Below, one piece after another: positions 12,528-17,026 of a stretch of DNA of 64,000 nt; the stretch's first letter is position 1; each line of letters starts with the position of its first letter. The DNA is from Promethearchaeota archaeon (GTDB taxonomy: Archaea > Asgardarchaeota > Lokiarchaeia > Sigyniarchaeales > SOKP01). Where the stretch lies: positions 32,001 to 96,000 of the forward strand of contig JAHPZA010000003.1 of assembly GCA_019058445.1 (NCBI GenBank), given 5' to 3'. A model generated the notes under the pieces. That model was not told the DNA's origin. It made no database searches and worked only from the letters and a program-made list of their open reading frames with translations. The translations under genes and the position numbers were made by a program.

Positions 12528-13310
12528 ATGGATATTATTGATTTGGATGAAAAATATAAAGAAACATTCATGGTATGTTTAGAAGATTGGTCTGATGAGA
12601 TGAAAGAGGCGGGAAACCATAAACACAAATGGTATAATGAAATGAAAAATAAAGGTCTGGGAGTGAAATTAGCAGTTGAAAATGAGAAAGTAGTTGGAAT
12701 GATTCAATATTTACCTATTGAATATTCATTCGCTGAAGGACAAAACCTCTTTGTAATCTTATGCATTTGGGTACACGGATATAAAGAAGGCGTAGGCAAT
12801 TTTCAAAAAAGGGGTATTGGAAAAGCATTGCTCCAAGCTGCTGAAAATGATGTCAAATCCAAAGGTGCTAATGGAATGGTGGCATGGGGCTTATCATTAC
12901 CTTTCTGGATGAGGGCAAAATGGTTCAAAAAGCATGGATACCTTAAAGTAGATAAGCAAAAAATGCAAGTTCTTTTATGGAAACCTTTCACTAATGATGC
13001 TATGCCTCCAAAATGGATTAAACAAAAGAAAGTTCCTGAATTAGTACCAGGAAAAGTAAAAGTAACAGCTTTTATTAATGGATGGTGCCCTGCTCAAAAT
13101 ATTGTATTCGAAAGGGCAAAAAAAGCAACAAAAGAGTTTGGAGATAATGTGATATTTGAGGAAATCCATACCAATAACCGTGAACATTATTTAGAGTGGG
13201 GTATTACTGATGCATTATTTATAGACAATAAAGAAATGAGAACAGGACCTCCTCCATCTTACGAAAAAATAAAAAACCGTATATCTAAGAGAGTTAAAAG
13301 ATTATCATAA
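12528..13310 (+). CDS. GNAT acetyltransferase with a C-terminal thioredoxin-like domain
   Basis: VGMIQY, LCIWV, the acetyl-CoA motif FQKRGIGKALL, FKKHGY; C-terminal GWCP...GITDALFID...GPPP. Confidence 0.8.
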   Translation: MDIIDLDEKYKETFMVCLEDWSDEMKEAGNHKHKWYNEMKNKGLGVKLAVENEKVVGMIQYLPIEYSFAEGQNLFVILCIWVHGYKEGVGNFQKRGIGKALLQAAENDVKSKGANGMVAWGLSLPFWMRAKWFKKHGYLKVDKQKMQVLLWKPFTNDAMPPKWIKQKKVPELVPGKVKVTAFINGWCPAQNIVFERAKKATKEFGDNVIFEEIHTNNREHYLEWGITDALFIDNKEMRTGPPPSYEKIKNRISKRVKRLS

Positions 13311-13446
13311 ATCAAGTAAAAATTTATACTAATATATACCTCAAAATCTAATATAAATTGGGTATTAAAAATCATTTAGAATTTTTGAATAAACTTTATT
13401 AGAATACAAGGACAATAAACAATTATTAGTCAATAGGTGGTAAACA

Positions 13447-14229
13447 ATAATCGATTGGTCTAAAGCCCAGTCAAACCCTAAATCAAAGCAAAAGGTATTA
13501 GGAAGAGATCTGTTGGATTTACGGGCTAAAATAAATGATTTAGAAAAGAATCTCGCTCAAAAAAGAAAAGAGATAAAGGACTTAAATGATAGAATAAGAT
13601 CTGCTGCAACTGACGTAGAACTTGGCTTAAGTAAGGTAGAAGAGAGGAAAAGAAAATTTGAAATTCGAGATAAAGCATTAAATGAGAAAATTACTTTTTT
13701 AGAAAAGACAATATTAAACAGGAATAAAGAAATAGAGATTCTTAAAGTGGATATAGAACAGAGAAATCGTCAAATTAGTAATCTTAAAAAATTAGAAGAT
13801 CAAATCGTAGAAAAAGACAAGGATATCAATCATTTAAAACAAATCATTGAACAAATGAATAGACAAAAAGATATTGATAAAAAAGATTTTACTCAACAAC
13901 TTTTAAACAAGGATTTAGAAGTTGAAAAGAGTAATGAAATCTTAAAACAAATCAAAAAACAACTGGAAACTAACGAAAACTTAATCCATCGAAAAGATGT
14001 AGAAATCGAGAAGCTTGAAATTGAATTTGAGAATAAAGCTAAACAAATAAACGAGATTACTCAAAAATTTAGGGATCTCGAATCGAAAATATCTGATGAG
14101 ATTCAATTATCTTCCAAACTCATCAAAAAAATTGAGAAGTTAATGCATCTTAAAGGATTTGTGAGCGACAAAGAACTTGAGGATCTAAAAGAAAAAATAG
14201 AAAAAAACCAATTCTCTATCAATTATTAA
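13447..14229 (+). CDS. Coiled-coil protein, paralog 1 of 3 (conserved IDW head, KGFxxD tail); probable ATA start
   Basis: The ORF track starts at TTG 13513. The frame is open back to 13444 and encodes the IDWSKAQSNPKSKQKVLGRDLLDLR head shared with the paralogs. GGTGG at 13436-13440 precedes ATA 13447. Confidence 0.75.
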   Translation: MIDWSKAQSNPKSKQKVLGRDLLDLRAKINDLEKNLAQKRKEIKDLNDRIRSAATDVELGLSKVEERKRKFEIRDKALNEKITFLEKTILNRNKEIEILKVDIEQRNRQISNLKKLEDQIVEKDKDINHLKQIIEQMNRQKDIDKKDFTQQLLNKDLEVEKSNEILKQIKKQLETNENLIHRKDVEIEKLEIEFENKAKQINEITQKFRDLESKISDEIQLSSKLIKKIEKLMHLKGFVSDKELEDLKEKIEKNQFSINY

Positions 14230-14385
14230 TCTATTGGGCACTGCTAAACTAAAATTATTGTATGCTTTTTCAGAGGAGAAAGAGGCGCAAGACTTCATTT
14301 TTTTGTGTGTAAAAATGTTAAGAAAGCGTAGTTAGAAGTAAAATTTTTATACGAACGTAAAAATTTCTAGTATATTAGAACAGAT

Positions 14386-14400
14386 ATATTTATAAAATTA
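14386..14400 (+). promoter_or_regulatory. TATA element ATATTTATAAAATTA upstream of coiled-coil paralog 2
   Basis: An identical 15-mer lies upstream of paralog 3 (15472-15486) at a similar distance (~70 bp) from the start. Confidence 0.55.
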
Positions 14401-14473
14401 ATGTGATAACCTAATAACAAGGGTTTATATTTATATTAATTTTTAGAGGAATACCTTAAGGAGATTATAGAGT

Positions 14474-15349
14474 ATGAGAATAGATTGGGAATTAGCAACT
14501 GTAAAGCCTAATAGAAGGCAAAAAATTGAAGGGAAATATCTTTTAGATCTAAGAACTAAAATACATGATTTAGAACATGAATTATCTCAAAGTAATAAAG
14601 AAATAGAACAAGCCAAAGAAAAGTTAACAATTACCGAACAAAGTTTTAACCAACTTACAGAAAAATTCATAGCTTCTGAGAAAAATATGGATGAGATTAT
14701 ATCAGATCTTAAAAAGAAATTGCGAATGGCTGAGACGAAATTTACGGAAAAAAATGACCGAGTTGATGTATCCTTGGACAGAATTACAGAGCTGGAACAA
14801 AAAATCTTAAATAAAGATAATGAATTAATGAGAGTAAAATTTAATTTAGAAAAGACAAATAAAGAAATCGAGAAATTGAGAAATCATTTCAGTCAAAATT
14901 CTACGGGGAAAGAAAGTCAAATTGAAGAACTGAGGTCTGATTTAGAAACAACCCGAAGAGAAGTTAATTTATTAAAACAGGAACTGGAGCAGTCTGTGTC
15001 GACAAAAAGTCTTGATGTAAACCGTTTTAAAACTGAATTAGAACAAAGGAACAACCAAATTGAACAACAAAACAAACAAATTGAAATCAATAAAAAGGAT
15101 TTAGATCACACAATTTTAACTAAGGATAGTATAATAGCTAAACTTGAAAAAGATCTTGAAGATAAAATTAATCAAATTGAAGACTTAAATAACAACATAA
15201 ATGAACTGTATAGTCAAATATCGAATGTTAAAGATACTGGATTAACCATCACAAATGTACCTAATGAAAGCAGTGTTTTGAAGAGAATTAAAGAATTAAT
15301 GGACCTGAAAGGTTTTGTCACTGATAAAGAGCTTGAACAGCTTATGTAA
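14474..15349 (+). CDS. Coiled-coil protein, paralog 2 of 3
   Basis: Head MRIDWELATVKPNRRQKIEGKYLLDLRTKIHDLE, a long E/K/Q-rich heptad rod, and tail IKELMDLKGFVTDKELEQL. Confidence 0.85.
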   Translation: MRIDWELATVKPNRRQKIEGKYLLDLRTKIHDLEHELSQSNKEIEQAKEKLTITEQSFNQLTEKFIASEKNMDEIISDLKKKLRMAETKFTEKNDRVDVSLDRITELEQKILNKDNELMRVKFNLEKTNKEIEKLRNHFSQNSTGKESQIEELRSDLETTRREVNLLKQELEQSVSTKSLDVNRFKTELEQRNNQIEQQNKQIEINKKDLDHTILTKDSIIAKLEKDLEDKINQIEDLNNNINELYSQISNVKDTGLTITNVPNESSVLKRIKELMDLKGFVTDKELEQLM

Positions 15350-15471
15350 GTTCCACTTAACCTTTTTTTCTAAATTCAGAAACTTTAAACATTTAAACTA
15401 GTTCTATACACAAATCAAACTTTGTTTTTATGAAATGGAAAGTTTCTTAAAATGTTAGGAAATTTAGAGAA

Positions 15472-15486
15472 ATATTTATAAAATTA
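15472..15486 (+). promoter_or_regulatory. TATA element ATATTTATAAAATTA upstream of coiled-coil paralog 3
   Basis: Identical to 14386-14400. Confidence 0.55.
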
Positions 15487-15554
15487 GTAATAGATATACT
15501 CATTATCAACAAATATGGATTTTTAAAAGTCTGAGAATTCTTAAGTGATATATT

Positions 15555-16262
15555 TTGAGTATTGATTGGTCGAAATTAGAGTCCAAACCTGAAATGAAAA
15601 TAAAGGTTGATGGGCAAATTTTATTAGATCTTAAAGCCAAAATTCACGATTTAGAACTGGAATTGATCCAACATAAAGAAGATCTAGAAACAACAAAAGA
15701 AATATTAAGCGAAAAAGAAACCTTAATAAAAAGTTTAACCGATAAATTATCATCTACGGAAAATGAGCTGAATGACTCTGAGAAAAAAATTCAGAGTGAT
15801 GCGGAAGAAATAAACTCATTAACAAACCAAAATGCTGAATTGACGGATCAGTTGGTAAAAATTAAAGAAGAATTATCTGATAAAATGAAGGAATTAGAAA
15901 CTCTAAAGAATGAAGTTGTAAGAGATGTTACTCAGAGAGACAATGAAGTAGAAAATCTAAAAAACATTACTATCCAAAAAAATAGAGAGATAGAAAGATT
16001 CAAAATCGATTTGGAGCAAAAAAATAAAGAGATTGAAGATTTAAGAGAGATTATCACACAAAAGGAGAAAGAAATTTCTAATCTTAATGGAGAATTAGAG
16101 ACAAAATTAAAGCTAATCGATGAGTTCAAAAATAAGATTAAATTGTTGGAAGTAACTATTTCAGAGGGGCAATCATCTCAATATATTGTTGATGAAATCA
16201 AAAGTATTATGCAGCAAAAAGGCTTTTTGTCTGACCGAGAATTTGAAAACCTAATTAAATAA
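15555..16262 (+). CDS. Coiled-coil protein, paralog 3 of 3
   Basis: Head MSIDWSKLESKPEMKIKVDGQILLDLKAKIHDLE, a heptad rod, and tail IKSIMQQKGFLSDREFENL. Confidence 0.85.
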   Translation: MSIDWSKLESKPEMKIKVDGQILLDLKAKIHDLELELIQHKEDLETTKEILSEKETLIKSLTDKLSSTENELNDSEKKIQSDAEEINSLTNQNAELTDQLVKIKEELSDKMKELETLKNEVVRDVTQRDNEVENLKNITIQKNREIERFKIDLEQKNKEIEDLREIITQKEKEISNLNGELETKLKLIDEFKNKIKLLEVTISEGQSSQYIVDEIKSIMQQKGFLSDREFENLIK

Positions 16263-16420: not shown

Positions 16421-17026
16421 TTAGAGAATTTTATCATAGTGAAAATTATAATGAGTCAAGACTGTTCTAACCAATTCTTTAAAGCTAAGTTCGATATTAT
16501 AATTTGTTTTTGAAGACGTTTTTATAAAGCTACTTTCATTGTGTCTTTTGAGAAATCGGTCAATAACTAAATCATCTATAAGGGTGCCGGCATCTGGAGT
16601 ATTTGTTAAATCACTTTTGGTACCAATAACAAATCTAGGGGTATTTTGATGGTTGTATTGAACAAGCTTATCATACCACCAATCCAACATAAGTAATGTC
16701 TGAATATTTACTAAACTAAAGACTAAGAAAATACCATTTGCACCACTAAGATAATAAAGAAAGAATTTTCTAAATTGTTCTTGACCACCAAAATCCCACA
16801 ATGAGAGTCTAATAAATTTTTCCTCTCCATCAATTAATATAGCCAAATCGTGTGTATAAAAATCAACTCCAATCGTCAATTGGGTGCTAGCTTCAAACGT
16901 ATTATAACATAACCTTCTACAAATGCAGGTTTTACCCACTCCCCCCTGACCTAAGATGCATATTTTTATGATATAATGGGGTTTAATCTCATTAGCATTG
17001 CTAATTATTGGCATAAATGAATACAA
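16421..17026 (-). CDS. Rab/Roc-like small GTPase
   Basis: GQGGVGKT, LTIGVDF, WDFGGQEQF, G4 variant GTKSD, KTSSK. The true start may be ATG 17014. Confidence 0.9.
   Translation of the reverse strand: MYSFMPIISNANEIKPHYIIKICILGQGGVGKTCICRRLCYNTFEASTQLTIGVDFYTHDLAILIDGEEKFIRLSLWDFGGQEQFRKFFLYYLSGANGIFLVFSLVNIQTLLMLDWWYDKLVQYNHQNTPRFVIGTKSDLTNTPDAGTLIDDLVIDRFLKRHNESSFIKTSSKTNYNIELSFKELVRTVLTHYNFHYDKIL

Follow-up and report, generated by a model that had tools for sequence, protein, structure and literature searches.

A conserved N-terminal head shared by coiled-coil rods with exchangeable C-terminal modules in Asgard archaea, exemplified by a tandem gene trio

Introduction

Three adjacent genes on the forward strand of contig JAHPZA010000003.1, from a Promethearchaeota archaeon, encode coiled-coil proteins that share a conserved N-terminal head and a conserved C-terminal tail and that diverge in the rod between them. 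Here we characterize this trio (genes 1, 2 and 3) within a 64,000-nt stretch of the contig, termed the window, to which coordinates refer unless a locus elsewhere is named. We report that its head is present in nearly all sampled genomes of one class of Asgard archaea, where it is joined to at least six different C-terminal modules, and that the tail is a module of the window's own family within that class. We favor, tentatively and with somewhat less than even confidence, an interpretation in which these proteins are parallel coiled-coil dimers and work as modular linkers that dock through a common head and differ in the module at their other end.

Current knowledge of Asgard cell biology is built around Lokiactin, profilins, gelsolins, tubulin-like proteins, ESCRT and small GTPases, and coiled-coil organizers in these organisms are largely uncharted. 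A first-pass annotation of the window, made from its sequence, had pictured the trio as an undescribed Asgard family. In this respect it stands: the literature on Asgard coiled-coil or intermediate-filament-like proteins yielded no description of the head family, its rods are under purifying selection (see below), and homologs at NCBI carry only the name "hypothetical protein [Promethearchaeota archaeon]". The JGI name "chromosome segregation ATPase" on two homologs reflects coiled-coil similarity only. Defined here are the head family, its phyletic range and the swapping of its end modules; one of those modules, a Zn domain, has already been described on the Lokiarchaeal gelsolin 2DGel (PMC9433394).

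Results

Anatomy of the trio proteins

The three proteins are 32-36% identical to one another overall. In alignment, residues I, D, W, P, K, G, LLDL, K, I, L and E of the head and M..KGF..D.E of the tail are invariant among them, and between the two motifs lie rods of 201-257 residues, differing in length by up to 56 residues. These rods are true heptad coiled coils. Hydrophobic residues account for 0.67-0.69 of the a/d positions, against 0.12-0.15 elsewhere, in all three; the 3.5-residue periodicity stands above that of shuffled sequences at z = 18.6, 3.0 and 18.6 for genes 1, 2 and 3, respectively; and each rod contains one to four register shifts, with four in gene 2. No transmembrane segment was detected in the trio (maximum 19-residue Kyte-Doolittle mean, 0.48), nor any DNA-binding domain. 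A Pfam scan of the three proteins returned no family above its cut-off, only sub-threshold coiled-coil noise, and no ATPase family, including SMC-type heads with Walker A/B motifs. The first-pass description of three same-strand genes with a common head and tail, divergent heptad rods and neither a transmembrane helix nor an ATPase domain is thus borne out by alignments, profile matches and heptad statistics. Charge contrast within the trio is strong, the gene 1 product having an isoelectric point (pI) of 9.1 and those of genes 2 and 3 having pI values of 5.5 and 4.8. A tag on gene 2, PF28422.1, was treated as coiled-coil noise; it co-occurs with generic coiled-coil families on a homolog and is absent from local Pfam and from the literature, and a similar tag, PF24161, is CCDC39.

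An AlphaFold2 (AF2) model of the gene 3 product, built from a 63-row alignment with a mean predicted local distance difference test (pLDDT) score of 88.8, comprises a helix at residues 5-10, a loop at 11-19, an unbroken helix from 20 to 222 (203 residues, or ~30 nm if each residue adds 0.15 nm) and, past a break at K-G-F, a final helix at 227-234. The first 20 residues were modeled with low confidence (pLDDT 56-59). In this model the head looks like a flexible peptide motif ahead of the coiled-coil start, and the tail like a helix-turn-helix. Prediction of a complex of two heads and two tails (residues 1-60 plus the last 60, from 63-row alignments) scored 0.00, in a run without controls, and counts neither way. 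Searches of PDB sequences with the head and tail profiles returned nothing meaningful, and an ESM Atlas search for look-alikes gave low recognition, with nearest clusters that are unrelated and unnamed.

Distribution of head and tail

The genome from which the window derives is represented by 4.6 Mb in 10 contigs and is 92.6% complete. A six-frame search of all of it with a 40-column head profile found exactly five copies (E 4e-24 to 4e-22), and the tail profile matched those five genes and nothing else (E 8e-20 to 5e-14). Three of the five are the trio, in each of which the head profile aligns at residue 1 and is followed by a heptad rod, with the tail profile falling within the last 35 residues (E 3e-19, 2.5e-18 and 5.5e-14); the other two are paralogs on contigs C3 and C9 (Table 1). 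The range of length given for the rods is 179-291 aa among the five paralogs and up to 415 aa in relatives.

When 400 Asgard genomes were searched, the head profile matched 158 of the 160 belonging to the window's class, with one to six copies in each, and none of the 240 belonging to other classes; every match sat N-terminally in an open frame 170-415 aa long. With a broader profile of the head, derived from 69 sequences, only 196 matches at E <= 1e-3 were retrieved from 1.84 billion representative proteins. Genuine matches start at residues 1-25, lie within residues 1-45 and occur in proteins of at most 470 aa, while a few proteins longer than 700 aa align through generic coiled-coil columns only. 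Of the 134 genomes in the window's own family, by comparison, 122 matched the tail profile, as did none of 26 genomes from the six sister families of the class. The survey by profile hidden Markov models that had been proposed with the first-pass annotation therefore separates a class-wide head from a tail confined to one family. From these distributions the head family appears restricted to a single Asgard class, probably Lokiarchaeia to judge from the NCBI names of homologs and the 2DGel literature, and the head is older than the tail and independent of it. Orthologs of gene 2 in metagenomes are 67-83% identical to it, and the stretch is present in sediment and soil metagenome DNA runs.

Exchangeable C-terminal modules

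Head and rod followed by a Zn domain is the form found in the six sister families; most genomes of the window's family also have one such gene in addition to the tail-bearing ones. On these head-rod proteins the domain spans 50 residues (CPxCG..EDKxKVLSYVGHxPxYAKKxxCKKCGYEF), and the best PDB match to its profile is the C-terminus of the Lokiarchaeota gelsolin 2DGel (7WHG_G residues 285-332, E 1.9e-6). Akil et al. (2022; PMC9433394) described this domain as the C-terminal module of Loki2DGel / MKD1-2DGel and of unrelated multi-domain Loki proteins; it was always C-terminal and had a conserved loop tyrosine, association with F-actin was not seen, and binding to a cellular feature or complex was suggested.

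A second form, in which head and rod are followed by a zinc ribbon and a gelsolin domain, is represented by at least seven sequence clusters (alignment A14). All seven members touch Pfam Gelsolin, and the profile of this form matches villin (4e-13), gelsolin (about 1e-11) and Loki 2DGel (3.5e-9) in PDB. In a metagenomic representative, P0146 (178 aa), the head and a short coiled coil precede a Ras/Roc GTPase domain (PF00071, E 3e-11); this protein was probably cut by a contig end, since its sequence stops inside the GTPase domain. Other head-bearing proteins end in a TrmB_C-like domain (one case) or in one of two unknown C-terminal domains. The head is in this way joined to at least six different C-terminal modules, and its conserved positions are identical in alignment across versions ending in the tail, the Zn domain, gelsolin, GTPase and the remaining modules.

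In the window's genome the Zn profile (A5) matched seven genes, none of them head-bearing, and the trio genes contain no Cys motif of the CPxC...Y-A-K-K...CxxC pattern. The canonical head-rod-Zn gene is missing from this assembly and present in congeners, an absence that could stem from the unassembled 7% of the genome; cultured strains encode the Zn-ended ortholog. Derivation of the tail from a "GGFxS(D/E)ER" linker that precedes the Zn domain was considered and rejected (hhalign probability 1.7%).

Several further observations concern the Zn domain. The window's genome encodes, at G000:C10:509819-509965 (L109), a protein of 332 aa in which two gelsolin-like domains and an acidic linker are joined to a C-terminal Zn domain, evidently the ortholog of published Loki2DGel (335 aa, PDB 7WHG). 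Zn domains of the 2DGel type occur in 245 of the 400 Asgard genomes, including many families outside the window's class, where they are usually single-copy; within the class the count is 1-13, and a single genome has fewer than two. The domain had been reported as not consistently detectable beyond Loki (Akil et al. 2022; PMC9433394), and its presence in 245 genomes that include other classes makes it appear older and more widespread than reported. The same genome contains a second tandem pair of coiled-coil proteins with Zn domains (G000:C4:173276-174331; L103 and L104; 229 and about 240 aa), with a different conserved head, MD..E(Y)EFN(D/E)(K/R)I(M/L)(K/R)ALMK(K/Q)V, so that the head-rod-Zn design has arisen with more than one head. 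A Pro-rich protein with a coiled coil and a Zn domain is encoded at C6:1160894 (L105).

An insert of ~30 nt with an in-frame TAA or TAG breaks the Zn domain of the head-rod-Zn gene in four genomes (Table 1). At two loci, L012 and L022, the reading frame stops inside the Zn domain, for which a pseudogene, a small insertion and recoding are candidate causes. The rod of another head-rod-Zn gene (L024:550-1626, minus strand, genome G166) contains four near-identical repeats of ~28 residues (SRISELEGELESAESKASELEDQLQTAN), a recent in-phase lengthening of the coiled coil.

Relation of the tail to SHOCT

The first-pass annotation had likened the tail to SHOCT oligomerization motifs. The Pfam SHOCT model PF09851, for which membership is taken as at least 27 bits, gave no match to the isolated tails even with E allowed to reach 10, and all five tails also went unmatched when the genome was searched in six frames with an E limit of 1. 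When 25 same-family genomes were searched at E <= 1e-5, PF09851 gave one match in each of two (G178:C59 and G233:C62), neither being a listed tail locus. Profile-profile alignment by hhalign against 15 genuine SHOCT domains of other Asgard genomes gave a probability of 64% with a 63-row tail profile and of 88% with a 5-row profile, over 20 columns in which M..KGFLSDKEFE is paired with L..kGeITxEEFe (P 7e-5 to 3e-6). The tail also has the shape of SHOCT, with two helices and a break at K-G-F in the AF2 model, and all 63 aligned sequences keep its G and E. We accordingly describe the tail as SHOCT-like in pattern and predicted secondary structure, at a level below the family's own threshold. A PDB search with the genuine SHOCT profile gave nothing meaningful. 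For SHOCT itself, the experiment of Eberhardt et al. (2013; PMC3581485) did not support oligomerization, and the authors suggested nucleic acid or other proteins as binding targets. With no match to PF09851, a likeness seen at the profile-profile level and oligomerization unsupported in that study, the proposal of a SHOCT oligomerization motif is not supported.

Ancestry, selection and neighborhood

A FastTree phylogeny of 66 tail-bearing proteins resolves two paralog clades, with one copy of each per genome in two large sister genera, where the genes form a tandem pair. The window's genus forms a separate, well-supported clade containing three ortholog groups that match genes 1, 2 and 3. The order GNAT acetyltransferase, gene 1, gene 2, gene 3 recurs in two other assemblies, and the ratio of nonsynonymous to synonymous substitution rates (dN/dS) in the rods is 0.1-0.4 between species, a rough estimate with dS near saturation. 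Because the gene order recurs and the rods show these ratios, the trio is best regarded as an expansion that has been maintained at the genus level, as opposed to a recent accident. In one sister genus the two members of the tandem pair mostly differ in length by no more than 8 residues, and in the other by 9-23 residues. Within the trio, the length differences of up to 56 residues between rods disfavor in-register heterodimers.

A Rab-like small GTPase gene does lie convergently downstream of gene 3, as first noted (Table 1). As a partner of the family at large it fares poorly: flanking small GTPases are confined to the window's genus and one other, and in the two large sister genera the tandem pair was surrounded, at 16 loci, by genes for a DNA methylase, a fucose-isomerase-like protein, DUF72, an enoyl-CoA hydratase and MgtC, housekeeping neighbors from which no functional partner emerges. 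Adjacency taken alone is weak evidence in any case, because the window's genome yields 78 Ras-family matches. The single head-rod-GTPase fusion keeps a GTPase link possible.

Gene starts and transcription signals

The mechanically called open reading frame for gene 1 (13513..14229) begins at TTG 13513, downstream of the conserved head. An in-frame TAA occurs at 13441, with no ATG, GTG or TTG between it and the head, and the sequence from 13447 reads ATA-ATC-GAT-TGG. Orthologous loci in five genomes retain AGGTGGT-N5-ATAATCGATTGG and have no canonical start. From this conservation and the in-frame TAA, gene 1 most likely initiates at ATA 13447, as had been proposed, and the position of the invariant Shine-Dalgarno-like AGGTGG agrees (Table 1). 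Near-cognate starts are frequent in the head family: 58 distinct gene starts include 16 ATT, 15 ATG, 10 TTG and 4 GTG, and ATA or ATC starts are seen in gene 1 orthologs (window 13435-13458; other loci including L005:1485-1515). For many of the ATT starts no ambiguity is left, since the frame is closed 2-3 codons upstream by a TGA or TAA within or next to a GGTGA Shine-Dalgarno sequence.

The 15-bp TATA-like element reported at first pass as common to two genes, ATATTTATAAAATTA, occurs exactly twice in the window, upstream of genes 2 and 3, and its core, TTTATAAAA, is present upstream of the C3 paralog as well. Since these elements precede genes 2 and 3 and runs of seven T residues follow genes 1 and 2, the three genes are probably separate transcription units.

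Table 1. Features of the gene trio, its neighbors and related loci. Positions are those of the window unless a contig or genome is named.
Feature	Position	Strand	Remarks
GNAT acetyltransferase	12528-13310		260 aa; directly upstream of gene 1; position kept in L048 and L049 (same genus)
Shine-Dalgarno-like AGGTGG	13435..13440	+	6 nt before gene 1 ATA; invariant in five orthologous loci
Gene 1	13447..14229	+	260 aa; pI 9.1; probable ATA (or ATC) start
Gene 1 head	13447-13545 (aa 1-33)	+	Head profile match
Gene 1 tail, IKKIEKLMHLKGFVSDKELEDL	about 14122-14187	+	Tail profile match after a rod of ~200 residues; a 13-aa extension follows
T7 run after gene 1	14298..14304	+	Likely archaeal oligo-T terminator
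TATA-box-like 15-mer, ATATTTATAAAATTA	14386..14400	+	Exact; 73 nt upstream of gene 2
Gene 2	14474..15349	+	291 aa; pI 5.5; ATG start
Gene 2 head	14474-14575	+	
Gene 2 rod		+	~230 residues; four heptad register shifts; followed by a short non-helical linker
Gene 2 tail, LKRIKELMDLKGFVTDKELEQLM	15278-15346	+	
T7 run after gene 2	15363-15369	+	Putative terminator
TATA-box-like 15-mer, ATATTTATAAAATTA	15472..15486	+	Exact; 68 nt upstream of gene 3
Gene 3	15555..16262	+	235 aa; pI 4.8; TTG start
Gene 3 head	15555-15656	+	
Gene 3 tail, IVDEIKSIMQQKGFLSDREFENLIK	16185-16259	+	
Ras/Rab-like small GTPase	16421..17026	-	Convergent, downstream; PF00071, E 8.7e-33
Paralog	G000:C3:19138		179 aa; GTG start
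Paralog	G000:C9:404799		247 aa; ATT start right after TGA inside GGTGA Shine-Dalgarno
Zn-domain insert locus	G277:C17:13030-13212		
Zn-domain insert locus	G273:C56:10456-10638		
Zn-domain insert locus	G257:C18:14993-15172		
Zn-domain insert locus	G180:C183:29458-29640		

Discussion

The anatomy of the trio, the phyletic distribution of its head and tail, the domain swaps and the purifying selection are matters of observation. In the modular linker interpretation built upon them, the trio consists of paralogous coiled-coil rods ~30-38 nm long that would most likely be parallel dimers. The head, a flexible peptide of ~20 residues, x-S-I-D-W...P...K-x-K-V-x-G, ahead of the helix start LLDLRxKIxxLE, would be the docking site through which every member of the family binds a single common partner or another member. 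The rod, fast-evolving and variable in length, would act as a spacer that sets a distance, and the C-terminal module would bind a second target specific to each version, the module of the window's family being the two-helix SHOCT-like tail, M..KGF[LV][ST]D[KR]E[FL]E.L. The tail-bearing version duplicated to give the conserved tandem pair and, in the window's genus, the trio plus two dispersed copies. The head must have a function of its own, whether it docks to a common partner or associates with other heads, because it predated the tail, keeps its conserved positions where the tail is absent and is joined to so many modules.

Sharing of the Zn domain with 2DGel, together with direct fusions to gelsolin domains, ties the family to the repertoire of actin regulators. 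For the tail-bearing trio the link to the actin cytoskeleton would be one of guilt by association through these relatives. The label of a cytoskeletal or tethering family given at first pass is accordingly plausible by way of the Zn domain and the gelsolin-fusion clusters; from the trio itself no such link arises. This last point weighs against the modular linker interpretation, since the cytoskeletal connection is made by relatives with other end modules. So do three others: profile searches of PDB and Pfam turned up nothing related to the head; the conserved tandem pairs, and the similar lengths of their partners in one sister genus, would fit obligate hetero-oligomers or a polymer as well; and sequence conservation at both rod ends would also be expected of an end-to-end polymer.

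The filament system envisaged in the first-pass annotation, in which dimers of the trio would join end to end or staggered through head-tail contacts, as homo- or heteropolymers in the manner of intermediate filaments, crescentin or tropomyosin, seems to us unlikely. It would accommodate long heptad rods with stutter-like register shifts, the placement of the strongest conservation exactly at the two rod ends, the retention of tandem paralog pairs across the family and of the trio in its genus, and the occurrence of one basic with two acidic members. However, the head keeps the same conserved positions in tail-less Zn, gelsolin and GTPase versions; being class-wide, where the tail belongs to one family, it cannot have evolved to bind the tail, and its greater age and independence argue against a co-evolved head-to-tail polymer. 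Rod length, moreover, is not conserved even inside the trio, and the step from conserved rod ends to end-to-end polymerization, which the annotation had made, loses its footing. Matches to the Pfam families Filament and Rod_CreS stop at 16 bits against cut-offs of 40 and 100, and oligomerization by SHOCT is experimentally unsupported (PMC3581485). We find it improbable, too, that the head is a co-assembly module through which, by heads or rods, all head-bearing paralogs would join into one Lokiarchaeia-specific coiled-coil lattice or filament, decorated with end modules and coupling Lokiactin regulators, with the trio as its expanded structural subunits; if true, the closest relatives of eukaryotes in culture would have a third cytoskeletal element, one specific to their lineage.

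Greater doubt attaches to a role for the proteins as actin-associated cross-linkers or nucleation factors, with the N-terminal peptide binding Lokiactin in a WH2-like manner and the dimeric rod bridging two actins or filaments. The direct fusion of head and rod to gelsolin domains and the sharing of the Zn domain with 2DGel are in keeping with such a role, as is the predicted shape of the head, a short amphipathic helix at residues 5-10, a loop and a basic K.KV motif; the resemblance to WH2 is one that we presume and treat as a lead. Against it, the WH2 model PF02205 matched no head at E up to 10, and the L-basic-basic-V/T signature of WH2-like motifs in Asgard gelsolins (PMC9433394) is unmatched by the head, which has K-x-K-V. 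A non-cytoskeletal scaffold, whose rods would organize membrane, small-GTPase platforms or nucleic acid and for which the gelsolin fusions would be one of many uses of a generic dimerizing spacer, is in our view about as unlikely as the filament system. It draws on the GTPases that flank these genes in two genera, the head-rod-GTPase fusion, the relative with a TrmB_C-like end, the failure of the Zn domain to bind F-actin in vitro (PMC9433394) and the suggestion that SHOCT binds proteins or nucleic acid (PMC3581485). The trio, on the other hand, has no transmembrane or amphipathic membrane anchor and no DNA-binding domain, its sister-genus neighborhoods are made up of unrelated housekeeping genes, and with 78 Ras-family genes chance adjacency is not rare.

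The modular linker interpretation thus remains the one we prefer, and the family it concerns is compact and can now be searched with a single profile. Reuse of the rod-head module provides a handle on the docking target of the unexplained Zn domain of 2DGel and on the positioning of actin regulators in the cell, and the trio, as a derived expansion at the genus level, could be a tractable case for the function of SHOCT-like motifs. Should the proteins be plain spacers, the outcome would be a useful annotation with no new principle.

Comparison with known systems

SHOCT domains are, like the tail, short and C-terminal, with two helices split by a conserved Gly and followed by (I/L)(T/S)x(E/D)EF, and they often overlap predicted coiled coils. 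The tail differs in its shortened second helix, most proteins ending 3-5 residues past EFExL, and in the invariance of its Lys-Gly-Phe, which is not invariant in SHOCT; the function of SHOCT is not established.

Intermediate filaments, crescentin and bacterial coiled-coil-rich proteins have in common with the trio a head, a stuttered heptad rod, a tail, conservation at the rod ends and the absence of a nucleotide-binding domain. The trio differs from intermediate filaments and crescentin in the variable length of its rod, in a head that is a 20-residue peptide and not a low-complexity domain, and in a C-terminal end that its family exchanges for globular domains. The intermediate filament model PF00038, defined by at least 40 bits and a conserved rod length together with helix-initiation and termination motifs, reached 16.1 and 16.4 bits, both in mid-rod, and Rod_CreS (PF19220) reached 10.8-15.8 bits against its cut-off of 100. 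Tropomyosin is similar in its parallel coiled-coil rod and in the conservation of ~10 residues at each terminus; PF00261 scored 14.8 and 10.1 bits, short of the 38.6 required, a head-tail overlap finds no support in the trio, and no 7-fold actin-binding period was seen, though no search aimed at one was made.

Golgins and similar eukaryotic tethers offer an analogy of function only. They resemble the family, as interpreted here, in combining a long dimeric rod, free to evolve in sequence and length, with a short conserved end motif and a targeting module at the opposite end, and in links to small GTPases, which in the family are genomic or by fusion; the trio has no sequence relationship to them and no GRIP, GRAB or transmembrane anchor. 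The Loki Zn-domain proteins (PMC9433394; 7WHG) stand closest. Although IDW-headed coiled-coil proteins are not described in that study, the class-wide sister form of the trio carries the same C-terminal domain, including the loop tyrosine in Y-A-K-K, on a head and rod homologous to those of the trio, in which the Zn domain is replaced by the 25-residue KGFLSD tail.

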